Assembly: GCA_963723515.1 (NCBI GenBank)
Contig: CAVRQT010000003.1
Span: 416,001 to 480,000, forward strand
Direction of reading: 5' to 3'
DNA length: 64,000 bases
Origin: Vulcanimicrobiota bacterium
GTDB taxonomy: Bacteria; Vulcanimicrobiota; Vulcanimicrobiia; Vulcanimicrobiales; Vulcanimicrobiaceae
Part shown: positions 1,730 through 40,828 of the stretch, in pieces
Layout: each line of letters opens with the position of its first letter
Position numbering within the stretch: position 1 is the first letter of the stretch
The notes under the pieces: model-generated
What the model was told of the DNA's origin: nothing
The model's input: only the letters and a program-made list of their open reading frames with translations
Database searches by the model: none
Made by a program: the position numbers and the translations under genes

Positions 1730-2861
1730 ATGGCCGTGCTGCTGCATTCTGCCCTCTCCAAGGCCCTTTTTCTCATGATGATCGCGGCGTGCTTGCTCTT
1801 GCTCATGGTCGGCTGCGGGGGCGGTGGTGGAAGTTCGTCCATTCCGTCCGCCGGGAACGCACACGCCGGTAGCCCTTCCCCTGTTCCGGGGCCGCCAACG
1901 CAAAATCCGCGACCGACAGCGCAGCCTTCCGGAGTCCCGGGACCAACCCCGACGCCCCCGGGCCCTCCGCCACCGGGCAATGTGGCGGTCTTTGAAGGGT
2001 GCAGCATCTTCATGCCTGGCGATTGGTACAACGGGGATATCAGTACTGCGCCGACCGATCCGAACAGTGCCGGCTATATCAGTTCACTGATGCAATATGG
2101 TGACGGCGCCGGCTTTTGGGCGTCGACTGGAATCGAATTCATAAATTTAGCGAACAGCCGGCACGCCGCTGCTTCCGGTGCAAAGCGTGCCGGATGGCGA
2201 GCGGTTTTCGACTCCTTATCCGTGGCTTGCGACATATCGTATAGAACCCGACGTCGACCATCATGCGATGGTGCTTGACACAAGTGCGTGCCGGCTTTTT
2301 GAATTGTATAACACACAGTATGCGGCCGGTACGCTTTTCGCGTATAGCGGTTTTATTTGGAACTTGCATGCGTCGATGAGTTCTCCGCGGGCGGGACTCC
2401 CTTCGGCGATGGCATCCGGCTTATCGCTATTCGCAGGCGCGGTCAAATGGGAAGAGTACGTTGCGGGCTCGATCAATCACGCACTGAACTGGGCCCCGGC
2501 GGCCGGATCGATTTCACAATACAACTTTGTTGCGCCCGCAAGCGACACCGGTGGACTTCCGTTCGTTGGTCCCGCAACAGCGCCACAGATTCCATACGGT
2601 GCACATCTTCGTTTACGGCCGTCTTTCGATGTGAGCGGGTTGGGTCCACAGGCACGCGCAGTTGTGAAGGCGATGCAAACCTACGGCATCTATCTCGCCG
2701 ACACGGGCGGCACATGCTGCGGCAATGCCCTATACTTCGTCAATGCGGTTGATGGCAGCAATCGATGGAATACTAGCGATTTGAATGGTCTCGCTCAAGT
2801 ACACATCTCAGATTTCGACGTTCTGCGATTGCCGCCGCTGCAGCGCGTACCCGGCCACTAA
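1730..2861 (+). CDS. Secreted lipoprotein, frameshifted near 2160
   Basis: Lipobox (LLMVGC), Gly/Pro linker and WYNGDISTAPTDPNS motif; continues in ORF 2178-2861 (INHAL, YGIYLADTGG). Confidence 0.7.
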
Positions 2862-28378: not shown

Positions 28379-30871
28379 ATGTCGATGTGGGAACCGTTCA
28401 CCGAACGAGCAAGGCGCAGCATCGTGCTCGCTCAGGAAGAGGCGCAACGGCTCGGCAACAACTACATCGGAACCGAGCACATCTTGCTCGGCATCATTTC
28501 CGAAGGCGAGAGCTTGGCCGCCAAAGTGCTCGAAACGCTGGGCGTCAACCTCGCCAAAGTTCGCCAAGAAGTTGAGGCGATCGTCGGACGTGGCGGGCAG
28601 ACCGTCCAGCAGGAGATGGTCTTCACGCCGCGCGCAAAGCGCGTCATCGAGCTCGCCTTTGAGGAAGCCCGGCAGCTCAACCACAACTACATCGGCACGG
28701 AGCATCTGCTTCTCGGCTTAATCCGAGAGGGAGAGGGCGTCGCCGCACGGGTTCTGACCAATCTTGGGGTCGATCCCGCCAAGGTTCGGCTGCAGACTAC
28801 ATCGCTGCTCGGTGCGGAAGGTCAGCCGCCGGCGCCCAAAGGCAAGTCGAAGACGCCGACGCTCGATGCGTACGGTCGAGATCTGACGACCCTCGCCCGC
28901 GAAAACAAACTTGATCCCGTCATCGGCCGCTCGATGGAGATCGAGCGCGTCATTCAAATTCTCTCGCGGCGCACGAAGAACAACCCGGCGCTGATCGGCG
29001 AACCGGGCGTCGGAAAAACCGCGATTGCCGAAGGCTTAGCGCAACGCGTCATCAAGGGCGACATTCCCGAACCGTTGCGTGAACGGCGTGTCATCACGCT
29101 GGATTTGGCAGGCTTGGTTGCCGGAACGAAATATCGCGGCGAGTTTGAAGAGCGCATGAAGCGCGTGATGGATGAGATCCGCGGGGCTGCTGGGGAGATC
29201 ATCCTCTTTATTGACGAGCTGCACACGCTTGTCGGCGCCGGCGCCGCCGAAGGGGCCATCGATGCAAGCAATATCATCAAGCCGGCGCTGGCGCGCGGCG
29301 AGTTGCAGTGCATCGGAGCGACGACGCTCAACGAGTTTCGCAAATACATCGAGAAAGATGCGGCCCTCGAGCGGCGGTTCCAGCCGATCATGGTCGGCGA
29401 GCCGAGCATCGACGAGACGATCGAAATTCTCAAAGGACTGCGCGACCGGTATGAAGCGCATCATAAGGTGCAAATCACCGACGAAGCGCTGGCTGCTGCC
29501 GCACGGCTTGGCGATCGTTACATCACCGATCGCTTCTTACCCGACAAAGCCGTTGACTTGATCGATGAAGCTTCGTCACGCGTGCGCCTGCAAGCGACGC
29601 TTCCGCCGCCTGAAATTCGCGAAATCGACGCGCAGTTGCGTAAAGTCCTGAGCGAAAAAGAATCGGTCGTCAAGTCGCAAGAGTTTGAGAAAGCCGCCGA
29701 GATTCGGGATCGCGAGGAGAAGCTGCGGCTCGAGAAGGCGCGGCTCGAGCAAGAGTGGCAAGAGAAGCGCTCGCAGCTCGACAAGACGCTCAAAGTCACG
29801 GATGAAGACATCGCCGGCATCGTTTCATCGTGGACGAAGATTCCGGTTTCAAAACTCGCCGAAGCTGAAACGGCCAAGCTTCTCAATATGAAGGAATCGC
29901 TGCATCGACGCGTCGTTGGACAAGACGAAGCGATCGAAGTCGTCACGCGGGCGATTCGCCGTTCGCGCGCCGGATTGAAAAACCCGCATCGCCCGATCGG
30001 TTCGTTCATCTTCCTCGGTCCGACGGGCGTCGGAAAAACAGAGGTCGCGCGCAGCGTCGCCGAGTTTCTCTTCGATGATTCGGACTCAATTATCCGCATC
30101 GACATGTCGGAGTACATGGAGAAGTATGCGGTCAGCCGGCTAGTCGGCGCACCGCCGGGATACGTCGGTTATGAAGAAGGCGGTCAACTGACCGAAGCCG
30201 TGCGGCGCCGTCCTTACTGCGTCGTCCTGCTCGATGAGATCGAGAAGGCACATCCAGATGTCTTCAACATCCTCTTGCAAGTGCTCGACGACGGCCGCTT
30301 GACGGATAGTCAAGGCCGCGTCGTTGACTTTAAGAATTCCGTGATCGTGATGACGAGCAACGTCGGCGCGACCGGTATGCAAACGACGACGGATATCGGT
30401 TTCCGTCCGCAACGTGATGAAGGCAAGACCGAAGACCAGCTCTACGAGAAGATGAAGAATAAGGTGCTTGAAGAGGTCAAGCACACCTTCCGCCCCGAGT
30501 TTTTAAATCGCGTTGACGAAATTGTGGTCTTCCATCAATTGACGCGCGAAGAGATCGAGCAGATCGTCGGACTCGAGCTCGAGAAAGTCATCCGCGAAGT
30601 CAAGGCACAAGATATGCATCTCGAGGTTACCGAGGATGCGAAGAAGCTGCTCGCCCAAAAAGGTTGGGATCCGCAATTCGGTGCGCGCCCGCTGCGGCGC
30701 GCGATTCAGCGCGAAGTGGAGGACGAGCTATCCGAAGAGATGCTGCGCGGGACCTTTTCATCCGGCGACCACGTTTTGGCTGAAGTCAATCCAGACAATC
30801 CGGATAAGCTGAAGTTCAGCAAGATTCCGGCGGTCGAACCACCGCCGGTCCCAGAACCAGTCACAACCTAA
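28379..30871 (+). CDS. clpC: ATP-dependent Clp protease ATP-binding subunit
   Basis: Clp N repeats (GTEH.LLG), two AAA modules ([16 protein letters not shown]), UVR middle domain, IGF loop, GARPLRR. Confidence 0.97.
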
Positions 30872-30872
30872 C

Positions 30873-30904
30873 GAAAAGCGGCGCCTCGGCGCCGTTTTCT
30901 TTTA
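30873..30904 (+). terminator. Intrinsic terminator of clpC
   Basis: GAAAAGCGGCGCC-TC-GGCGCCGTTTTCTTTT immediately after the stop codon. Confidence 0.85.
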
Positions 30905-30923
30905 AGGCGGCCGAGTTCAACCC

Positions 30924-31025
30924 TGTCACCCTGAGCTTGTCGAAGCGCCACCGGAACGGTGAACACCGAGCTTTAAATCGTGACATTCATGATCGGGGTG
31001 GCCCTTCGTCAAGCTTAGGCTGACA
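30924..31025. repeat. Inverted pair of REP-like palindromes
   Basis: TGTCACCCTGAGCTTGTCGAAGCGCCACC and a degenerate inverse, GGTGGCCCTTCGTCAAGCTTAGGCTGACA. Confidence 0.85.
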
Positions 31026-31112
31026 CAGTGAGGCGTGGACACCAAAAAAACAACGTAGCTAGCGTCAGCCCGAGAGGATGATGCGTGCACGGCAAGCGTA
31101 CACACCTCATCA

Positions 31113-32809
31113 GTGAAGCCGGCGCTGCTTGCTTGCCTTTTCTTTACCGGCCTCTTGTTCGGGCGTGTTGCGCTCGGACAAGAATCACCATCTCCCTCGC
31201 CGGAAGCAACTCGCGCGCGCCGTTGATAACGCCGGCGCCGACGTTAACGCCCGGGCCGACATCAACGCCGACCACGACGCCGCAACCCGGACCGCTGCAG
31301 GCCAATCCACCGTCGATTCAGAGCAATATCGGCGTGCCGAAAAGCGTTGCAATCGGCGGCGCAACCGGTGCGCTAACCGCAACGATCGATCCCAAGATCG
31401 CAACGCTTGCGATTGCCGGCACGACGCTGACGGTAACGCCGTCGATGAACGGCCGGGCGACGATTCATGTGGTCGATGCGGCCGGTGCATTCGTCGACAT
31501 CTTCTTGCGCGTTGCGCCGAATGCGGCGACGATTTCCCGAATGGTGAGCGTCAAGTTAACCGGCGACCTAGACTCAAGCTTCATCGCAAATGAGACGTCG
31601 CTTGCCGTGCATCAGGCGGTCAACGCGAATCCCGGCACAACCATCAACATCGGCTTGCTGCCGCCGCCGACCACTTCGTTGCCGGTTGGAAGTGAATACA
31701 GCTTTGGACTTCCGGTTACGGTGCTTGGGGGCGATCAATATCTCGACGTGAGCGACGTGATGCGAGTTGACGTCCAGCATGTCGCCGCTCAACCGTTCTC
31801 GCCGACGATCCTCTACTATTCCGACGATCCCGAGCGGATCGTGAACGACGGCGTGCTCTTCCGCGGGACCGTAACGACCGGCACGCCGGTGCGGCTCTAC
31901 GATTACCACGAGAACGGTACGGATCCGCGCCGTTTAGTTGTTGCGCTCAGCAGCTCTTCAACCACGCCGACGAGCGCCCAAATCGTCGAATCGTTCGCCG
32001 GGCCGAACATCGACGTCATGGGCGTGGGCCACGCAGTCGCCAAGAATTTTTTGATTCAGAAGCCGCGCAACCAGGGGATCGTTCTTGACTTGCCTGACGG
32101 CGCGCCGTATTTTCGGCGCGACGTGCCGTTGCTAATGCAGCAAGGCACCGCCGATGTGGCGGATGTTCGCATTCTCGAAGGCGGCCCGCTCACGATCACC
32201 GTGATGGCCGCGTCGCCGAATGTTCCCGCCGCCAGTTTGCTTGCCGGACCGCAGTTGCCCGGTGACGGGAAAGGCCGCCACGGAACGTTTGCGCTTTCCA
32301 GCTACGGCACCCAAACCGTTGACTTTACGGTCGGCAATCAAGATGCGACCGTAACGCTCGGCGATCGCGAACAAACGATTCCCAAAGCAAATACATCCGA
32401 TCCCGGCGCTGATTTCGGCGACTACGGCGTGATGTTCAACATGACGCTCATTGCGCGCAATCCCGGTGATACCGCGCAAACCGTCTACATCTATGAAGCG
32501 CCGCGCGGCGGGCCGGTTCGCGCGACGTATCTCTTGGACGGATCGGCGACGCCGACCGAACTAGGCTGCGCGACCTCTCCGCCAAGCGCAACGAGTTCAC
32601 CGCGACGCTACTTGATTGGGCAATTTGACGTCGGACCGCACAGCGCGCAGACGCATACGATGTGGACGATGACCGAAGGCGGCTCGAACTATCCGCTCGT
32701 GATCGGCCTTTCAACCGATGCGCCCGAGCCGCAAACGCCGCCGATTTTCGGGCCGGAAGGGTGTTTCCCCAAGCCGGAGGCCGCACTGCGAACGCGCGGA
32801 TCGCCGTAA
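31113..32809 (+). CDS. Large secreted hypothetical protein, frameshifted near 31215
   Basis: Signal peptide MKPALLACLFFTGLLFGRVALG from GTG 31113 lies in a different frame; then a Pro/Thr linker, YSDDPE, GDYGV and GGSNYP motifs. Confidence 0.7.
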
Positions 32810-32819
32810 GAGCGGGACG

Positions 32820-33821
32820 ATAGAGAACCAAGAGCCCAAGGTCGTCCTTCTCGTGCGCCTGCTGAACGCAATCGATGAGGGACGATATTCTTTTGAGGAT
32901 CTGAAGCGCCAAATCGCCGAAGGCGAGCATGCACCGAGCACCCGCAGCTTGCGACGCTACCTTTCAGTCCTTTCGGACGCCGGCTTTCCGTGGTACTTCG
33001 ATCGGGCCGCAAACATCTACAAGTTCACGGACGGCTACAGCTTGCGACGCATGCAGCTCTCGCCGGACGAACTCTTCGGGCTCGTCGCGCTGCGTTCGCT
33101 TGGTGCAAGTTTGGGCGGCACGCTCGGCGCGTATCTCAATAATGTTTCAGCAAAACTGGTCGGCTTATCCGGCGCCGGAGCGCAGCAAGAAGTTGAGGCC
33201 CGCGCACCGTTTGCGTTTCGCGTCAGCGAGACCCATCTCGAACCCGAGGCCGAACGCGCGTTCGCGTTGCTCTCCTCCGCCGAACGCAATTCGCGCTGCG
33301 CGCGCTTCACGTACATCGACAAAGAGGGCCGGCGCTCGGAGCGTACCGTCGATCCGTACGGCTTTGTTATCTCCGGCGGCCGGATTTACTTGATCGCCTA
33401 CGACCACACACGACGGGACAAACGTGTCTTCGCCGTCGACAGCGTGCTCGAACCCGAAGTGTTAGGGGCGACCTTTGCTAAGCCGCAAGACTTCGATGTT
33501 GAAACCTTTGCGGCAACATCGATCAGCGGCGTACTCCACAGCGAGACGACCAGTCAGGTCCGCCTTCGGTTCGAACAGCGCGTCGCCAAAGCCGCGATTG
33601 CGGCCCGAATCGTCACCGAGCGGGCGATCGATCGCGCAGATGATGGTTCCGTCGAAATCACCTATCACGTGGCCGACGTTGACGAACTGTTGCGTTGGAC
33701 GCTGGGGTGGGGCGAGGCCGCGCAAGTCGTTGGGCCGCCGGATGTACGCGTGCGCATGCGCGACCTGATTGGTTCAATCGGCGCGCGCTACGCCGAAAAA
33801 GACGAAACCCGCCGCCGTTAG
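32820..33821 (+). CDS. WYL-domain transcriptional regulator (wHTH-WYL-WCX)
   Basis: STRSLRRYLSVL HTH; Y......SERTVDPYG.....GRIYLIAYD..R.DKRVFAVD; W.LGWG...V.GP. Start probably ATA 32820. Confidence 0.9.
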   Translation: MENQEPKVVLLVRLLNAIDEGRYSFEDLKRQIAEGEHAPSTRSLRRYLSVLSDAGFPWYFDRAANIYKFTDGYSLRRMQLSPDELFGLVALRSLGASLGGTLGAYLNNVSAKLVGLSGAGAQQEVEARAPFAFRVSETHLEPEAERAFALLSSAERNSRCARFTYIDKEGRRSERTVDPYGFVISGGRIYLIAYDHTRRDKRVFAVDSVLEPEVLGATFAKPQDFDVETFAATSISGVLHSETTSQVRLRFEQRVAKAAIAARIVTERAIDRADDGSVEITYHVADVDELLRWTLGWGEAAQVVGPPDVRVRMRDLIGSIGARYAEKDETRRR

Positions 33822-33833
33822 GCGTCGGGCTTC
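33795..33833 (-). terminator. Intrinsic terminator on the minus strand
   Basis: GAAGCCCGACGCC-TAAC-GGCGGCGGGTTTC-GTCTTTTT; the G-U pair and the U tail fit only the minus strand. Confidence 0.75.
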
Positions 33834-33995
33834 GGCGTATCTCCTGTCGTCTCGCCTGTTTGAAACCGTTTCCGGTTTCCCACTGACGTATCGACGGTTC
33901 GATCGTTACGCTCGGACCGTCGCGAAAGCGACGTCATCGTCAACACGTAAGGATCGCGGTTTTTACGCGCTCCGCACTTCGTCGTTACTCGAAGT
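33795..33995 (-). ncRNA. Candidate novel structured small RNA (~200 nt)
   Basis: Bounded by its own promoter and an intrinsic terminator, with five predicted stem-loop domains and no credible RBS-led ORF. Family not recognised. Confidence 0.65.
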
Positions 33996-34001
33996 TTTTG
34001 C

Positions 34002-34030
34002 ATGGTAGCATCGTGAAAAGCGCTGCGCAA
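34002..34030 (-). promoter_or_regulatory. Sigma70-type promoter for the candidate sRNA
   Basis: TTGCGC-N17-TACCAT with extended TGn; predicted +1 is A near 33995. Confidence 0.7.
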
Positions 34031-34043
34031 GGGCTTTTTGCCG

Positions 34044-34114
34044 TCGCTCACAACCTTTCCACAAGAAATAAAACTTATTCGCCATGCGTTAGGTGGTTAT
34101 CCACGGTTTCCACA
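34044..34114 (+). promoter_or_regulatory. Cluster of DnaA-box-like 9-mers
   Basis: CTTTCCACA 34055, TTATCCACG 34097 and GTTTCCACA 34106, each 1 mismatch to TTWTNCACA and in the same orientation; a weaker TCGCTCACA at 34044. Confidence 0.55.
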
Positions 34115-34136
34115 AAGACGTGCGACAAGGAGCAAC

Positions 34137-34658
34137 GTGAAACGACCAACTTTGACCCTGATGCTCGGCTTGCTCATCTTCGGTGAAGCATTCTGTTCGA
34201 CCAACGCAGTGCACGCGCAAAGCATGTTCGGCGGCGCGCCGATCGACGGCATCCGCTGCGAGAGCATGGAAGGTGCCGTGCTGCACATTCACCAGCATCT
34301 CCAACTCTTCGATCGTGGACGCGCCGTACAAGTGCCGGCCGGCATCGGAATACCATCGGCTGCGAATTGCTTGTACTGGCTGCACACGCATACGAGCGAC
34401 GGCATCATCCACGTCGAGTCGCCCACGCGGCGGTCGTACGCGCTGGGGCAGTTCTTTGACATCTGGGGTCAAGAGTTGAGCCGCACGCAAGCTGACGGCG
34501 TGCGGGCACCGCGCGGGAGGGCACTGCGCATCACGGTCAACGGCCGCCTGTATCGCGGTGATCCGCGTTCGATTCCGCTGCGCGACCACGAAGAGATCGT
34601 CATTCAAAACGGACCGCCCTACGCGCGGGCCGCCTCCTACGACTGGTCCCGCATGTAG
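34137..34658 (+). CDS. Secreted His-motif hypothetical protein
   Basis: AAGGAG RBS, GTG start and signal peptide; HIHQHL, CLYWLHTH...GIIHVESP, LGQFF.IWG. Confidence 0.8.
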   Translation: MKRPTLTLMLGLLIFGEAFCSTNAVHAQSMFGGAPIDGIRCESMEGAVLHIHQHLQLFDRGRAVQVPAGIGIPSAANCLYWLHTHTSDGIIHVESPTRRSYALGQFFDIWGQELSRTQADGVRAPRGRALRITVNGRLYRGDPRSIPLRDHEEIVIQNGPPYARAASYDWSRM

Positions 34659-34707
34659 CCTTTCTCCGACCTGGGACGCGGGCAGAAACGCGTCTAAGGG
34701 TGCCTTC

Positions 34708-36262
34708 ATGACCGCTACGGCAGTCCCAACGGTCGAGCTCGATGGCAAGCATCTGACGCTCGAGCAAGTTCGTGCGGTCGCCGAAGAGGGCGCATCGGTC
34801 ACCGTTTCACCGGAGGCGCGCAAACGCGTCAAAGCGGCGCGCGCATTCGTCGAGCAACAGTTCGACCGCGGGAACCCCGATCTACGGTGTGACGACCGGC
34901 TTCGGCCGCCTCGCCAATGTGGCGGTGCCGCCGTCGGAGGCCGCAACACTGCAACTGAATCTCGTGCGCAGCCATGCGGCAGGGACCGGACCGCCGCTTG
35001 CGCAGCGTTTCGTGCGCGCCGCCGGCGTCTTGCGCGTCAGTTCGCTTGCCGCCGGCCACTCCGGCGTCAAGACAGAGACGCTCGATCTGCTGATGGCAAT
35101 TCTTAACGAGAGCATCACGCCGTACGTCCCGATGCAAGGCTCCGTCGGTGCAAGCGGCGACCTCGCGCCGCTCGCGCACATGACGCTGACGCTGCTCGGT
35201 GAAGGCGACGCGTTTTACCGCGGCGAGCGCATGCCCGCGCAACGCGCGCTTCGCGAAGCAGGCTTGCAGCCGTTGACGCTGGGCGCGAAAGAAGGCCTCT
35301 CGCTCGTCAATGGTACCGAGGTCATGACGGGCATCTCGGCCCTATGCGTTTTGCGCGCCGAGCGCTTATGTGCGGCGGCGGATGTGATCGGTGCGCTCTC
35401 GTTGGAGGCGTTTCATGCAACCGATCGTGTCTTCGATCGCCGCATCAACGCATTGCGGCCGCACGTCGGCCAGTCGCGCGTCGCCGAGAACCTTCGCGCC
35501 CTCCTGCGTGATTCCGAGATCATGCAATCGCATCGTGAATGCGGTCGCGTGCAAGATCCCTACTCTTACCGCTGCATCCCCGTCGTGCACGGCGCGGTAC
35601 GAGATGCGGTTGCTTATGCAAGAAAAGTGATCGAAACCGAGGCGATCTCCGTCACCGACAATCCGCTCGTTTTTCCGAAGGACGAAGAATTTTTGAGCGG
35701 CGGCAACTTTCACGGACAGCCCGTTGCGCTGGCGGCCGACGTGCTCAAGACCGCGATCTCGCAACTTGCGAACATCAGCGAACGGCGGCTCTATCTTTTG
35801 CTCAATGCAGAGGAGCGCGGTTTGCCGCTGTTCTTGACGGGTCGCTCCGGGTTGCAGTCGGGCCTTATGCTCGTGCAGTACACTTCGGCGGCGCTCGTGA
35901 GCGAAAACAAGGGCCTTTCGTGGCCGAACAGCGTCGACTCGATTCCAACATCGGCGGGCCAGGAAGATCACGTGAGCATGGGGATGACGGCGGCGTGCAA
36001 CTTGGATCGCGCATTAGATAATGTCGAAGGTTCTCTCGCGTGCGAACTCGTCGCGGCCTTGGTGGCGACGGATTTTCGCCGTCCGCTGCGTTCCGGCCGT
36101 GGCACACAAGCCGCGCACGATGCCGGGCGCGCGCGGATTCAAGCGTGGACTGAAGATCGGGCTCCGGCGCCTGACATCGAAGAAGCGCGCGAGCTGATCG
36201 GTTCGGGCACGATGGTTCGTGCGGCCGAAGAGGCAATTGGAGAACGGCTTTGCGACGCATAA
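34708..36262 (+). CDS. hutH: Histidine ammonia-lyase, frameshifted near 34872
   Basis: IYGVTTGFG, NLVRSHA, MIO motif GSVGASGDLAPLAH, QDPYS.RC, GGNFHG, QEDHVSMG. Confidence 0.93.
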
Positions 36263-36651
36263 CCGGTTTAGGCGGCGTTTTCTTCAAGGCGAAGGATACG
36301 AACGCGCTCGGCGAGTGGTATCGCGATCGCCTGGGGCTGCCCGTTTCCGAATATGGAAGCGCCGATTTCGACTGGATTGATGCGCAGACGAACGCTCCGG
36401 GCAAGACGGTCTGGGCGATGTTTCCACATGACAGCGATTACTTTAAGGAAACGGCGTCGCAGTTCATGGTCAACTATCGCGTTGAAGATTTGGATGCGTT
36501 GCTGGAAACGCTGCGCAAAGAAGGTGTGCGAATCGATCCGCACCGTGAGGAGTCTGAGTACGGCCGTTTTGCGTGGATTTGGGATCCCGAAGGAAACCGA
36601 ATCGAACTCTGGGAGCCGCCTCGCAACCACGCGAAGGCGCAGCAGCCGTGA
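36250..36651 (+). CDS. VOC (glyoxalase/bleomycin resistance) family protein
   Basis: [39 protein letters not shown]. Confidence 0.88.
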
Positions 36652-38309
36652 CGGCCACCGTCTCGCAGCCTCACATCGTCCGTGCGCCTCGCGGAACCAA
36701 GCTAAACGCTCTGGCCTGGCCGCAAGAAGCGGCGCTGCGCATGCTGATGAACAATCTCGATCCCGAAGTCGCGGAGCGCCCTGAAGATCTCGTCGTGTAC
36801 GGGGGGAGCGGCCGTGCGGCGCGTTCGTGGACGGCTTTTGAGGCGATCGTTCGAACGCTCAAACGGCTCAAGAACGATGAAACGCTGATCGTTCAAAGCG
36901 GCAAACCGGTTGCGGTTTGGCGCACGCATGAACGCGCGCCGCGCGTGCTCATTGCGAATGCAAATCTCGTGCCGAAGTGGGCCGATTGGAAGACCTTCCG
37001 CGAGTTGGAAGCGCAAGGACTCACGATGTACGGTCAGATGACCGCGGGATCGTGGATTTACATCGGCACCCAAGGGATCGTGCAAGGGACCTTTGAGACC
37101 TTTGCGGAGCTTGCGCGGCAGCATTTCGGCGGAACGCTTGCCGGCCGCATCTGCTTGACCGCCGGAATCGGCGGGATGGGCGGCGCGCAACCGCTCGCGA
37201 TCACGATGAACGGCGGCGTCGCAATCGTCGTCGACGTCGACCGCGCACGGCTCGAACGCCGGCATGAACTGCGCTACCTCGACTGTGTTGTCGCAAGCCG
37301 CGACGTCGCGCTCTCAGAAGCGGAAGCGGCGCGGACTGAAGGGCGCGCGCTTTCGATCGGTTACGCAGGCAATGCAGGTGAAGAGTTCGCCGCACTTTAC
37401 GCGGCCGGGCTTCGGCCGGATGCTGTCACGGACCAGACGTCCGCGCACGACATGATCAACGGCTACGTGCCGATGGGCATATCGCTGGAGGAAGCCCTCG
37501 AGTTGCGGGCGCGCGATCCGCAAGAGTATGAGCGGCGTGCTTTTGAAACGGTCGCTAAGCACGTTGAAGCGATGCTGGCCTATCTCGATGCGGGCGCTGT
37601 CGTCTTCGATTACGGCAACAATATCCGTGCGATGGCGCAGCGCGCGGGCGTGACGCGCGCCTTCGACTTTCCGGGATTCGTGCCGGCGTTTATCCGCCCG
37701 CTGTTCTGCCGGGGCAGCGGACCATTTCGCTTTGCCGCGCTTTCCGGAGATCCAGGCGATATCGCACGCCTGGATGACGAGCTGCTGAAGTTATTTCCTA
37801 ACGACGCACATCTGCGGCGTTGGATCGAACTCGCGCGTGAGCGCGTCGCGTTTCAAGGTCTCCCGGCGCGGATCTGCTGGCTCGCGTATGGCGACCGGGC
37901 AAAGGCGGGTTTGCGCTTCAACGAGCTCGTCGCTAACGGGGAAGTTAAGGCGCCGATCGTGCTCGGTCGAGATCATCTTGATACCGGCAGCGTGGCATCA
38001 CCGTACCGTGAGACAGAATCGATGAAAGACGGCAGCGACGCGATCGCGGACTGGCCGATCCTTAATGCGTTGCTGAACACCGCCGCCGGTGCGCATTGGG
38101 TGTCCTTCCATCATGGCGGCGGAGTCGGTATCGGTTACAGTTTGCATGCCGGCATGGTCGTGGTGGCGGACGGAAGCGCGGATGCGCGCGAGCGGCTAGA
38201 AACAGTCCTGACGACCGATTGCGGCATGGGCGTCGTGCGGCATGCCGACGCGGGCTACGAGCTCGCGATTGAAACGGCCGACGAAAAGGGGATCGACTGG
38301 CGGTTGTAA
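36648..38309 (+). CDS. hutU: Urocanate hydratase
   Basis: [70 protein letters not shown]. Confidence 0.97.
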
Positions 38310-38317
38310 GCCGATCG

Positions 38318-39541
38318 TTGCTCGTGCGGGCGGGAACGCTCGTTACCTGCGAGGGCGGCAAAGCCCAAAACGCAATCGCTTTTGATGATTTAGGGATGTT
38401 TTCGCCCGGCGCGTTCACCGTTCGTGACGGCCGTGTCGTTTCGATCGGCTCGCCGGCCGACGTCGAAAAGTCGCTCAAGGGCGCTGCAAACGTCGAGATC
38501 GTCGACTTCGAAGATTGTGTCGTCACGCCCGGCTTCATCGACGCGCACACCCATCCGCTCTTCGCAGGCGATCGCGAAGCCGATTTTGCTGCGCGCCAAC
38601 GCGGAGACTCGCCGCCGCTCGGCATGCTGCATACCGTGCAATGCACGCGCAAAGCGCTTGAATCGCCTGAGAAACGGCAAGCATTTTGGGAGTGCGTTCA
38701 TGCGCGGCTTCACACGATCGCGCTGCACGGCACGACGACGCTTGAGTGCAAGACGGGCTATGCGCTCCACCGCCAGGGCGAGATTGCGCTTTTAGATTTA
38801 ATTGAGGCCCACAAAGACGACGCCCAGCTTCCACGATTGATCGCGACGTTTTTGGGCGCACATGCGCTGCCGCCGGAATACAACGCAGAAGACGCGTTCA
38901 TCGAATACCTGATCGGCCACGTGATGCCCGTGGCGCGCGCACACGGTGCGGTGTACGCAGACGCTTTTTGCGAAACGGGCTTCTTTTCTCCCGAACAGAC
39001 CCGTCGGTATCTAGAAGCGGCGCGGGCAAACGGGCTTCGGCTGCGCGTGCATTGCGACGAGCTTGCGCGCTCCGGCGCAGCGGCGATGGCGAGCGCGCTT
39101 GATGTTGACGCGATCGACCACGCCAACTTCATCGACTCAACCGATATCGATGCGATTGTCGAGCGCGGCATCGTGACCGTCGCCTGTCCGGCGACAATCG
39201 CCTACTTGGACATTCCCAAGCACCTGCCGGCGCGCGACATCCTCGAAAGAGGCGGGATGGTCGCGCTCGCGAGCGACTACAATCCCGGAACCTCGCCGTG
39301 CTTCAATTTGCAAACCGTCGCATTCTTTGGGCGCAAATTGCTTGGCTTTTCGGCAGCTGAGGCGCTCTACGGCGTGACGCGCGCCGCCGCAGCATCACTC
39401 CACGATGACGCGGGCGTTTTGCGCAACGGCTCGCGCGCGGATTTCGTGGCGCTGCAGATCGAATCGCCCGACGAGTTCGGATGGCAGTTCGGAGGAAATC
39501 TGGCGCAGGCGGTCTTTCGCAGCGGCCGGCGGATCGGATGA
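38318..39541 (+). CDS. hutI: Imidazolonepropionase
   Basis: PGFIDAHTH.LFAGDR..DF, GTTTLE.KTGY, TFLGAHA, D.FCE.G.F, ASDYNPGTSP. May start at CTG 38297. Confidence 0.9.
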   Translation: MLVRAGTLVTCEGGKAQNAIAFDDLGMFSPGAFTVRDGRVVSIGSPADVEKSLKGAANVEIVDFEDCVVTPGFIDAHTHPLFAGDREADFAARQRGDSPPLGMLHTVQCTRKALESPEKRQAFWECVHARLHTIALHGTTTLECKTGYALHRQGEIALLDLIEAHKDDAQLPRLIATFLGAHALPPEYNAEDAFIEYLIGHVMPVARAHGAVYADAFCETGFFSPEQTRRYLEAARANGLRLRVHCDELARSGAAAMASALDVDAIDHANFIDSTDIDAIVERGIVTVACPATIAYLDIPKHLPARDILERGGMVALASDYNPGTSPCFNLQTVAFFGRKLLGFSAAEALYGVTRAAAASLHDDAGVLRNGSRADFVALQIESPDEFGWQFGGNLAQAVFRSGRRIG

Positions 39542-40828
39542 AGGAAGTCGTTCAGTGCGCGCGCGCGCTCGTCGACGGCGTCGAGCGTCACGACTTTGCG
39601 TTCATCGTTGAAGATGGCGCGATCGTGCAATGTGGAGATCGGCGTAAGATTGACGCTCGCAACGCCAGCGTGCGCGAATTTGGTCCCCAAGCAATCGTCG
39701 CGCCGGGCTTCATCAACGGTCATAGCCACGCGTATCAGGTCTTGCTGCGCGGATGGGCGGACGATCTGCCGTTTGAGCGCTGGCGACGTGACGCGCTCTA
39801 TAAAGTCGTCCCCCGCTTGACCCCCGATGACATTTACTGGACGTTCGTCTATGCGTTCGGCGAAATGCTGCGCGCTGGAATTACGAGCGTCGTCGAATTT
39901 TTCTATCTGAACGGTGCTGGAAACGAACACGCGCGGGCAGCGATTCAAGCCGCGCGAGACACGGGTATTCGGTTGATTCTGGCGCGGGCTTGGATGGACG
40001 CCCCAGACGTGCCGGCGGCATTTCGAGAGACGCTGGATCAAGCTGCGTCGCGAACGAGCGAATTGATCGCCGCGTATCCGGATGTGAATATCTGCGTTGC
40101 CCCGCACTCACTGCACGCGGCGTCACGTGAGATGATTCTTTTGCGCGGCCGAATTCTCAAAAGAGCGCGATCTGATGCTGCACATTCATGTTGCTGAGGC
40201 CGCATACGAAGGCGAACAAACGCGTGCGTTGCACGGCGCGGCGCCCATCGAATTGCTGGAGCGCTGGGAGGTCTTGACCGAACGGCTCGTCGCGATCCAT
40301 GCGATTTACTTGAGCGACGCCGAGAAGAAACTGCTGGCGGCGCGCGGTTCGCGGATCGTTCACAATCCGACCACCAACGAGTATCTCGGCGATGGCATCT
40401 GCGACATCCCAAGGTTCCGCGAGCTACGCGTGCCGATCGCGCTTGGGACCGATGCCGACGTGAAACCATCTCTGATCGATGAGATGCGGACGGCCGCATT
40501 GCTGCAAAAGGTTGCGCAGCTCGACGGAGCGGCGCTCGACGCACTTGCAGTATTTGACTTCGCAACCCGTCAGGGAGCGCAGGCGCTCAGCATCGACTGC
40601 GGCGCGTTCTCGCCGCGAAGAAGTGCCGACTATATGGTCATCGACGCCTCAAAGCTTGATCCGTGGGCGGTGCCGATCAACGGGCTCGTCTATCGCGGCG
40701 AGACCAATTGGATCGCGCAGGCCTTCGTGCACGGCAAAGAGGTATGGAGCGGAGAGGAAACGGCGTTGCAGCAGCAATCCAAGGCCGCAGTGGGTAAGAT
40801 TGCGCGAAGACTAGATCTGGGGAGGTAG
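39538..40828 (+). CDS. Amidohydrolase, formiminoglutamate deiminase (HutF)-like, frameshifted near 40140-40175
   Basis: PGFINGHSHAYQ, EMLRAG.T.V.EF.Y, APHSL, HIHVAE, LGDGI, ALGTD; ATGA coupling to hutI. Confidence 0.75.

Follow-up and report, generated by a model that had tools for sequence, protein, structure and literature searches.

A conserved structured small RNA gene of one Eremiobacterota family, preceded by a candidate DnaA-box array

The RNA gene and its locus

We analyzed a stretch of 64,000 nucleotides from a Vulcanimicrobiota bacterium (assembly GCA_963723515.1, contig CAVRQT010000003.1, positions 416,001 to 480,000), here called the window, together with the genome it belongs to (the window genome, G000) and genomes of its relatives. 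Between the stop codon of a gene encoding a WYL-domain transcription factor (TAG, 33819-33821) and the start of the next coding sequence (GTG, 34137) lies a gap of 315 bp, which almost certainly harbors a member of a real non-coding RNA gene family, encoded on the minus strand. Eremiobacterota (WPS-2) are abundant soil bacteria that are largely uncultured, and no paper on a small RNA (sRNA) in Eremiobacterota was found in the open-access literature searched. An initial annotation, made from the letters of the window, had proposed a complete minus-strand transcription unit in this gap; its conservation with covariation in many genomes confirms that proposal. The features of the locus are collected in Table 1.

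The proposed promoter, TTGCGC-N17-TACCAT with an extended TG, is present as described, and the -35 element, spacer, extended -10 element and start are kept in 62 of the 62 copies for which upstream regions were aligned. Across these regions (C)TTGC is retained at the -35 position, and TGnTACCAT or TACGAT stands at a constant distance from the ACUUCG of the first hairpin. An A is indeed found at 33995, about where transcription had been predicted to begin with the first base of hairpin 1. At the other end, the predicted terminator with its UAAC loop and U tail is present and shows double changes in nine of the ten pairs of its stem (helix 7). The 3' end of the window copy extends 27 nt into the end of the convergent WYL open reading frame (ORF), in agreement with the earlier remark that it reaches into the last codons. 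We infer that the RNA would be transcribed from a promoter of the sigma-70 type and would stop at an intrinsic terminator backing onto the WYL gene. The scan also marks a terminator-like site on the plus strand (33976-34005), made up of hairpin 1 and the TTTTT after it; this is the complement of the A-run that precedes the RNA start, and the A-run is not conserved in homologues.

Table 1. Features of the RNA locus, in window coordinates
Feature	Position	Strand	Basis or remark
Structured sRNA gene, about 200 nt	33795..33996	-	Covariance model match, 190.7 bits, E 1.6e-61, at G000:C3:449795-449996 (-)
Predicted RNA start	A33995 (or 33996)	-	A 7 nt downstream of the -10 element
Predicted RNA 3' end	within U tail 33795-33802	-	
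Putative extended -10 element: TG (34010-34009), one base, TACCAT (34007-34002)	34002..34010	-	Read from sequence
Putative -35 element TTGCGC, 17-nt spacer to -10	34025..34030	-	Read from sequence
Intrinsic terminator: stem 33834-33803, loop UAAC, U tail 33802-33795	33795..33834	-	Terminator scan positive on the minus strand
P1, 5' hairpin ACUUCG-loop-CGAAGU	33976..33995	-	Helix 1 98.8% paired
P2, stem GCGG/CCGC, 12-nt loop	33956..33975	-	Helix 2 99.2% paired
Central domain (P3, P4, inner hairpins), variable	33892..33955	-	Helices 3 and 4, double changes in 4/4 and 5/6 pairs
P5-P6 arm: CGUCAGUGGG, GAAA hairpin, CAAACAGGCG	33853..33888	-	Irregular helix, conserved internal loops
Purine-rich linker, unpaired in consensus structures	33835..33852	-	Only AUACG conserved
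Proximal TGTG box pair: TGTGGAAAG (34063-34055), GT, TGTGAGCGA (34052-34044)	34044..34063	-	2-bp gap
Box at -88, GGCGAATAA, degenerate in the window genome	34075..34083	-	Family consensus TGTGnATAA
Two further box-like 9-mers: TGTGGAAAC (34114-34106), CGTGGATAA (34105-34097)	34097..34114	-	Read from sequence
WYL+WCX transcription factor gene, 367-aa ORF, convergent	32718..33821	+	Pfam WYL 6.7e-18, WCX 2.3e-14; true start may be later
173-aa protein gene, divergent, N-terminal signal-like segment	34137..34658	+	No Pfam or NCBIfam match
hutH	34772-36262		Aromatic amino-acid lyase by family match
hutU	36573-38309		Urocanase by family match

Secondary structure and covariation

The minus strand of a 201-nt stretch folds at -83.0 kcal/mol (z = -3.35), and none of 200 shuffles folds as well. 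The plus strand reaches -77.0 kcal/mol (z = -2.88), so that the earlier caveat of a better plus-strand fold fails for the unit as a whole; many of its U-G pairs would moreover become C-A on the plus strand. A regular-expression scan of the fetched loci yielded 15 distinct copies, each with its own terminator and the same promoter-to-start layout, and RNAalifold, applied to an independent MAFFT alignment of these copies, returned 44 pairs with compensatory changes in 22. The 15 sequences served as seeds of a covariance model, R1. Pair counts were taken over its 72 matches, 68 of them distinct, including four short terminator-only matches that add noise. Among the 68 distinct sequences 94.3% of the cells are paired, versus 83.6% in shuffles and 38-50% in controls with slid partners; both sides change in 32 of the 44 pairs, and the covariation score of 0.350 (control, 0.169) is equalled by none of 500 shuffles. 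This alignment was fitted to the model and thus favors the structure; the independent MAFFT alignment gives the same helices. U-G pairs are conserved at one pair of helix 5 in 62 sequences and in helix 4 in 48, and fix the strand as minus because they would be C-A on the other. Aligning relatives and examining them for covariation, as had been suggested in the initial annotation, thus supports both the fold and the strand.

The individual helices agree with the first description in part. Hairpin 1 (33995-33976) is supported: helix 1 is paired at the level given in Table 1, its fifth pair turns from GC to AU by a double change in seven sequences, and its loop varies in length and sequence. For hairpin 2, covariation favors the stem GCGG/CCGC instead of the proposed register GGAGCGCG/CGCGAUCC; at the inner pair, 34 sequences have AU, 19 have GC and 10 have GU. 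A branched domain closed by UGACGU and ACGUCA, as drawn originally, did not find support, and CGUCAGU pairs instead with the downstream ACAGGCG: the copy from genome G013 changes both sides of this pairing together, and the alternative pairing gains a mismatch. The predicted hairpin GAAACCG-GAAA-CGGUUUC stands as far as its stem is concerned (helix 6, double changes in seven of seven pairs), whereas its GAAA loop is not conserved. Helix 5 is nearly invariant in sequence, and the highest sequence conservation of the whole RNA falls on P5 and the internal loops (CGUCAGUnGG ... CAAACAGGCG). The purine-rich single strand noted before is present and unpaired in the consensus, with sequence conservation limited to the motif listed in Table 1. 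The repeated GUAACGA and UAA loops do occur in the window copy, but they are lineage-specific, and loops vary freely across the family. A paralogue of 157 nt (genome G010, locus L007, 1507-1663, minus strand) retains P1, P2, P5-P6, the linker and the terminator without the central domain; the existence of such short paralogues indicates that the central domain is dispensable for at least some copies.

Non-coding character and known RNA families

No Rfam 15 family is matched by the RNA. In the window region 33000-35000, searched at E <= 10, only sR19 was reported on the element (12.5 bits versus a gathering score of 45), with Mcr7 elsewhere, and 19 homologous loci gave 0 matches at E <= 1. The description as a novel sRNA, for which an Rfam search had been named as the check, is supported by this silence together with the conserved promoter and terminator, the covarying fold and the lack of conservation of the internal ORF. 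That ORF has 39 codons (peptide MTSLSRR...); 27 of the 68 aligned rows have an ATG in the corresponding column, the peptides range from 14 to 50 amino acids (aa), the frames differ between close relatives, and no GGAG-like Shine-Dalgarno motif was seen by eye in the 14 nt upstream of the ATG. A messenger RNA (mRNA) for a small protein was rejected on these grounds, the start codon, frame and peptide all being unconserved.

Three known types of RNA were considered as well. For an sRNA titrating CsrA/RsmA, GGA motifs should be frequent in hairpin loops; the average is 3.7 per RNA (n = 64), below the 4.7 of shuffles, and loops do not conserve them, and this candidate was rejected. The 6S architecture was rejected as well, because the 5' and 3' ends form separate covarying hairpins (helices 1 and 7) with no closing stem. 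A search of the window genome (88% complete) with the 6S model RF00013 found nothing, which means little because the same model detects 6S in only 5 of 14 control genomes. A Y RNA of the YrlA type was set aside for want of an end-to-end stem, with the WYL gene, the 173-aa protein gene and hutH as the neighbors of the locus; no genome-wide search for Ro60 was made. Since its ends do not pair together, the RNA is built neither like 6S nor like a Y RNA.

Distribution and copy number

A blastn search with 33780-34060 against 40 relatives matched 11 of the 24 family members among them and 0 of the 16 genomes from outside the family; one match (L012), which showed no promoter or RNA features, was left out of the alignments. 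With R1, positives within the family comprise 94 of 151 genomes, 47 of 78 genera and 62 of 96 high-quality genomes. The positives include five unpublished genomes (G020, G022, G045, G135 and G149), without which the count is 89 of 146; G020 supplied one of the 15 seed sequences, and no conclusion depends on unpublished genomes alone. In a phylum-level sample, the model recognized the RNA in 51 of the 71 genomes that belong to the family, as against 0 of 79 from 20 other families. We also scanned the genomes of 185,579 species with a degenerate pattern and fetched 80 loci from the matches listed, of which 24, picked by record title or by a match length of 34 nt, were passed to R1. Among these listed matches, 20 of the 24 loci match the model and the four that do not belong to other phyla; 18 of the 20 carry the names Candidatus Eremiobacteraeota, Eremiobacteria, Vulcanimicrobiota, Baltobacteraceae or Cybelea, and the remaining two are recorded as Candidatus Acidiferrales and as an uncultured bacterium. 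As far as searched, the RNA family thus appears to be confined to one family of Eremiobacterota.

With the search filters off, weak homologues were found beside the same type of promoter in two model-negative genomes, G076 (32.5 bits) and G041 (19.1 bits). Model-negative genomes are therefore not necessarily free of the RNA, since weak or divergent homologues may stand behind this type of promoter. In G060, the same slot (L178, about 2540-2760, minus strand) holds a promoter and a terminator around a divergent RNA, and G060 and G076 (L177, 3140-3395, plus strand) both have the same promoter type with a TTCTTGTGGATAA box in or beside the slot between the WYL gene and hutH. It seems that the RNA itself has been less well conserved than its promoter. 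A second R1 match in the window genome (C3:401923-402090, 19.5 bits) proved false, consisting of a tRNA and a terminator.

Genomes with the RNA have one to three copies, often in tandem, as is the case in three genomes of the 15-copy set. In five closed genomes the copies lie at about 7% and at 30-35% of the chromosome from dnaA. An origin of replication (oriC) or a titration locus was rejected, the RNA locus not being at dnaA in these five genomes.

Upstream array of box-like 9-mers

Upstream of the promoter, RNA copies follow a phased array of TGTGnATAA-like 9-mers in one orientation, which are the reverse complement of the DnaA-box consensus TTATNCACA. The logo of the 62 upstream regions reads tGTGnATAAc, about 9 nt, then TTcTTGTGGAnAcgTTGTGaGt, placed about 20 nt upstream of the -35 element; the end of the array is put at some 15 nt from that element. 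The most conserved upstream part is TTcTTGTGGAnAcgTTGTGaGt, with up to 2 bits per position. The consensus of the first box, at -88, agrees with the DnaA consensus at each of the eight positions where a base is specified, and its degeneracy coincides with the N; at the homologous position, 49 of the 62 copies have a box with at most one mismatch, and the window genome has one with two. Under the pattern TGTGNAWAA, in which W relaxes the consensus, at least one box is found in 59 of the 62 promoters and at least two in 37; 107 boxes share one orientation, and 3 have the opposite one. A site with at most one mismatch to TGTGNATAA occurs in 53 of the 62 promoters, in 31 of them perfectly, versus a genome background of 0.021 per 110 nt. 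In the window, box TGTGGAAAG has one mismatch to TGTGNAWAA, and TTATCCACG (G000:C3:450097, plus strand) differs from TTATCCACA at one position at most.

The boxes start at -99, -88/-87, -68/-67 and -57/-56, that is, 11-12 and 20 nt apart, and the start spacing at -99/-88 and at -68/-57 places neighboring boxes 2-3 bp apart. As outlined in PMC11317965, E. coli DnaA prefers boxes with gaps of 2-3 bp in vivo. Two or more boxes of the same orientation with such gaps are found at the family level, and the window copy shows them only loosely.

In the window genome as a whole, the sole place where three or more near-consensus boxes cluster within 300 nt is the region upstream of dnaA (C2:631730-631900), where TGTGGACAA-CGC-TGTGGACAA is followed by TGTGGATAAGTGGATAA; the boxes there are also given as TGTGGATAA and TGTGGACAA. 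When a profile of the array was run on this genome, the RNA promoter scored E 2.7e-7, and the next-best site, upstream of minC-minD, E 0.15. All six genomes examined (the window genome and five genera) have an array upstream of minC that includes a perfect TGTGNATAA, some 80 nt from the start (in one it lies at -117), and minC is located about 50 kb from dnaA in the window genome and about 50-90 kb in each of the six. The minC-minD array (G000:C2:683574-683633; relatives L187-L191) reads, in one orientation, TGTGCAG.., TGTGGATAA, TGTGAACCA and TGTGAGTGG. Box-like 9-mers (TGTGTATAA, TATCCACA and TGTGCATAC) were also noticed at G000:C3:809960-810010, directly upstream of a protein start MKNSLDQ..., whose gene is a candidate further member of the same regulon. 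Nine of the 13 perfect TTATNCACA sites of the window genome fall outside crude gene calls, about 82% of the genome being called coding. From the identity of the motif and from the other sites that carry the array, we consider it somewhat more probable than not that the array would be bound by DnaA.

Gene neighborhood

The order of genes in the window is ClpC, a Pro/Thr-rich protein of 574 aa, WYL, the RNA, the 173-aa protein, hutH, hutU and an amidohydrolase. In 20 of the 30 best loci a WYL+WCX gene faces the RNA 3' end to 3' end, and hutH lies on the promoter side in 20; among ten further loci, WYL and hutH flank the RNA in seven. Because the same loci also keep the gene of about 170 aa and hutH, the adjacency to WYL looks like inherited gene order. 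Other copies of the RNA occur at unrelated loci without a WYL gene (SBP_bac_5/HIT, YqeY-NfeD-FloA, an OPT transporter, a SpoIIE-GAF phosphatase); the link thus reflects gene order at one ancestral locus and no rule for all copies. The position of the WYL 3' end relative to the RNA ranges from an overlap of about 26 nt to a gap of about 90 nt, by ORF coordinates across loci, and a WYL orthologue is present in five of five model-negative genomes.

The nearest solved relatives of the WYL protein are WYL regulators that sense single-stranded DNA, including 8tp8 and PafBC (6sj9); 8tp8, which does not appear by name in the result table, we take to be DriD. With the DriD operator as the query, a DriD-type palindrome was found within two mismatches in 6 of the 62 RNA promoters and nowhere in 30800-34200 of the window, although the specificity of the WYL protein of this lineage may differ. 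According to the account in PMC10853764, the operator is ATACGAC-N7-GTCGTAT and regulators of the DriD type are switched by single-stranded DNA.

Other observations concern the surrounding ORFs. The 574-aa ORF (31085-32809, plus strand), whose N-terminal region is rich in Pro and Thr, extends into the start of the WYL ORF, and neither Pfam nor NCBIfam gave a match for it; in the relatives examined, an ORF of about 390-500 aa without a Pfam match precedes the WYL gene. Past hutH-hutU and another amidohydrolase, two overlapping ORFs (39481-40197 and 40175-40828, plus strand) correspond to the N- and C-terminal parts of Amidohydro_1 and may be one gene broken by a frameshift or an assembly error.

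Expression in public sequencing libraries

At least 20 public sequencing runs each contain a small share of the window, from which nothing was drawn about habitat. In one soil RNA library, a contig of 164 nt lies wholly inside the RNA (33840-33983) with seven differences and a mean word depth of 74.8; its unaligned end of 20 letters is presumably a sequencing adapter. A second contig from the same library, of 443 nt and a depth of 173.5, comes from a relative; it agrees with the RNA at both ends and differs in the central domain between them. The run does not cover the flanks, and this absence was not used as evidence. These contigs are a hint that the RNA of relatives is transcribed.

Interpretation and alternatives

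We lean slightly toward the view that the RNA is a trans-acting structured sRNA whose transcription would depend on DnaA and which is more likely to bind a protein than to pair with mRNAs. DnaA would bind the phased 9-mers, all in one orientation, at about -57, -68, -88 and -99; the position of the array upstream of the -35 element is compatible with either activation or repression. Synthesis of the RNA would then follow the level or the nucleotide state of DnaA, in co-regulation with dnaA and minCD, and the RNA would report the status of replication or of the cell cycle. In the last and weakest step of the scheme, it would act in trans through a protein bound to the conserved irregular P5-P6 arm. 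Protein binding is judged more likely than mRNA pairing because the conserved nucleotides lie in an irregular helix, not in an open seed; as a mode of action in its own right it remains somewhat doubtful, and a protein sponge, as first suggested, is possible.

Several observations weigh against this interpretation. A consensus promoter scan of the locus listed no promoter, and TTGCGC agrees with TTGACA at only three of six positions, so that the promoter call rests on its conservation in all the aligned copies. In the soil library, the 443-nt contig continues upstream past the predicted start for 255 letters or more; it could stem from carried-over DNA, from transcription reading through out of a tandem copy, or from a start that lies elsewhere. 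Neither the strand nor the ends of a transcript can be taken from such contigs, and RNA libraries may contain DNA. Kinship between the genomes means that counts across them overstate independence. As for the array, a strict double box is found in 17 of the 62 promoters and a relaxed one in 30, and a strict double-box scan of the window genome found only the dnaA site. The window array is weaker than the family consensus, with two mismatches in the -88 box and three, by hand count, in the -57 box. The two best-conserved boxes (TTGTGGAnA, TTGTGAG) retain non-consensus letters, which could mean a different protein of related specificity. Finally, protein binding is proposed from the location of conservation only.

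The explanations that would change the nature of the RNA or tie it to its neighbor are the least probable. That there is no RNA gene at all, the signals belonging to a 3' untranslated region or terminator region of WYL on the plus strand or to an mRNA for the MTSLSRR peptide, is barely credible: a good fold exists on the plus strand as well, where hairpin 1 and the T's after it can be read as a terminator, and the 39-codon ORF exists, but the conserved U-G pairs form on the minus strand only, the orientation of promoter, start and terminator is conserved, copies occur without a WYL gene, and the ORF has an inconstant start and shifting frames with no visible Shine-Dalgarno motif. An analogue of 6S or Ms1, that is, an RNA present in large amounts that associates with RNA polymerase and builds up as growth or replication slows, would fit the size of about 200 nt, the paralogues, the mean word depths of 75-174 of the library contigs and the failure of the Rfam 6S model to find anything in the window genome, itself a poor guide given the performance of that model in control genomes. 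The separately folded ends leave neither a rod nor a central bubble, and the 19 loci lack an Rfam match, which makes this reading very unlikely. A bond between the RNA and the adjacent regulator, either as a nucleic-acid ligand of the WYL domain or as an antisense or terminator partner of the 3' end of the WYL mRNA, had been suggested at the outset and is improbable; beyond gene order it found no support. The convergent arrangement at 20 of 30 and 7 of 10 loci, the terminator that overlaps the end of the ORF in the window genome, and the response of regulators of this type, among them the nearest solved relatives of the window protein, to single-stranded DNA speak for it. Against it, the gene of about 170 aa and hutH are equally kept, pointing to inherited order; RNA copies sit at other loci with no WYL gene nearby; the 27-nt overlap is not conserved; model-negative genomes have the WYL orthologue all the same; the DriD-type palindrome is absent from the locus and rare among the promoters; and the known effectors of these regulators are single-stranded DNA, not structured RNA.

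Two further alternatives are more serious, each of them tentative in our estimate. The RNA could be a base-pairing sRNA, with or without Hfq, whose linker (33835-33852) or loops pair with mRNA initiation regions, the siblings having diverged in their targets. Consistent with this, the RNA has its own promoter and, as expected of Hfq-type sRNAs, an intrinsic terminator followed by a U tail; Hfq is encoded in the window genome, and tandem siblings differ chiefly in their loops and linker. As for a seed, the open linker conserves only a single short motif. Against pairing, the nucleotides with the highest conservation lie in helices, and six conserved motifs showed no enrichment of their perfect complements around the predicted starts of one genome. 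Genome-wide scans against 2133 translation-initiation regions from crude gene calls of one genome, which are weak evidence, gave no outlier: duplex folding of five RNA segments produced implausibly long structures, and the top ungapped complements matched only the GC-rich terminator stem, with dnaA ranking 1436, minC 217 and 645, the 173-aa gene 1077, hutH 1246 and WYL 1955 of 2133. The array, for its part, could belong to another regulator, for instance a response regulator of the OmpR/PhoB/ResD type, in which case the RNA would report an environmental signal; we regard this, too, as unlikely, if worth keeping in view. The pho-box and the ResD-box are 7-bp direct repeats with 4-bp spacers and hence an 11-bp period, a layout that the 11-bp period of the best boxes, TTGTGGAnA and TTGTGAG, resembles; the -57 and -88 boxes of the window are poor as DnaA boxes, and the low count of strict double boxes points the same way. 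On the other side stand the -88 consensus, with its fit to every specified DnaA position, the dnaA-upstream boxes of the same organism, and the other conserved site of the array, located ahead of the cell-cycle operon minCD at a distance of about 50 kb from dnaA. Going beyond the preferred reading of a DnaA-dependent, protein-binding sRNA, the RNA might conceivably be one case of a wider, undescribed class of structured sRNAs that are gated by DnaA-box arrays and broadcast the activity state of the initiator, in this family alongside minCD and dnaA; the conserved irregular helix would then be the docking site of a cell-cycle or nucleoid protein. We offer this last idea as speculation.

Comparison with known systems

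The analysis provides a well-defined RNA of about 200 nt, with a testable fold, in about two thirds of the genomes of the family, often with tandem siblings. The RNA family is new and its kind, the stand-alone sRNA, is known; the proposed DnaA input would be an unusual variant, and no description of an sRNA controlled by DnaA boxes was found in the open-access literature searched. DnaA controls a small set of protein genes. If the proposal is true, a DnaA-box array common to a non-coding RNA, minCD and dnaA would connect the initiation of replication with regulation by RNA.

Among sRNAs, Qrr, PrrF1/2, AbcR1/2 and OmrA/B are likewise stand-alone genes with intrinsic terminators, tandem paralogues and a conserved regulator site at each copy. 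Unlike them, the RNA described here has no conserved open seed, its core is an irregular helix, and it shares no sequence or Rfam relation with them. With 6S (RF00013) and Ms1 it has in common the size class, the paralogues and possibly a high abundance, but it forms a string of local hairpins where those form a rod with a central bubble closed by the ends. CsrB, RsmY and RsmZ are also multi-hairpin RNAs, and CsrA is encoded in the window genome; their GGA motifs, however, have no enriched or loop-conserved counterpart here. The Caulobacter non-coding RNA CcnA modulates CtrA and GcrA, as stated in PMC8959179. The RNA described here would likewise be tied to a master regulator of the cell cycle, the proposed input being DnaA, and the two are unrelated in sequence and lineage; CcnA reportedly acts by base pairing with the CtrA and GcrA mRNAs. 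The closest parallel to the array is the compact DnaA regulon of E. coli, as it is presented in PMC11317965: in both, near-consensus TTATNCACA 9-mers lie upstream of promoters in one orientation with gaps of 2-3 bp, and a cluster of the motif is also found upstream of dnaA. Unlike in that regulon, the product here is a structured non-coding RNA in one to three copies, and the array spans four to five helical turns.

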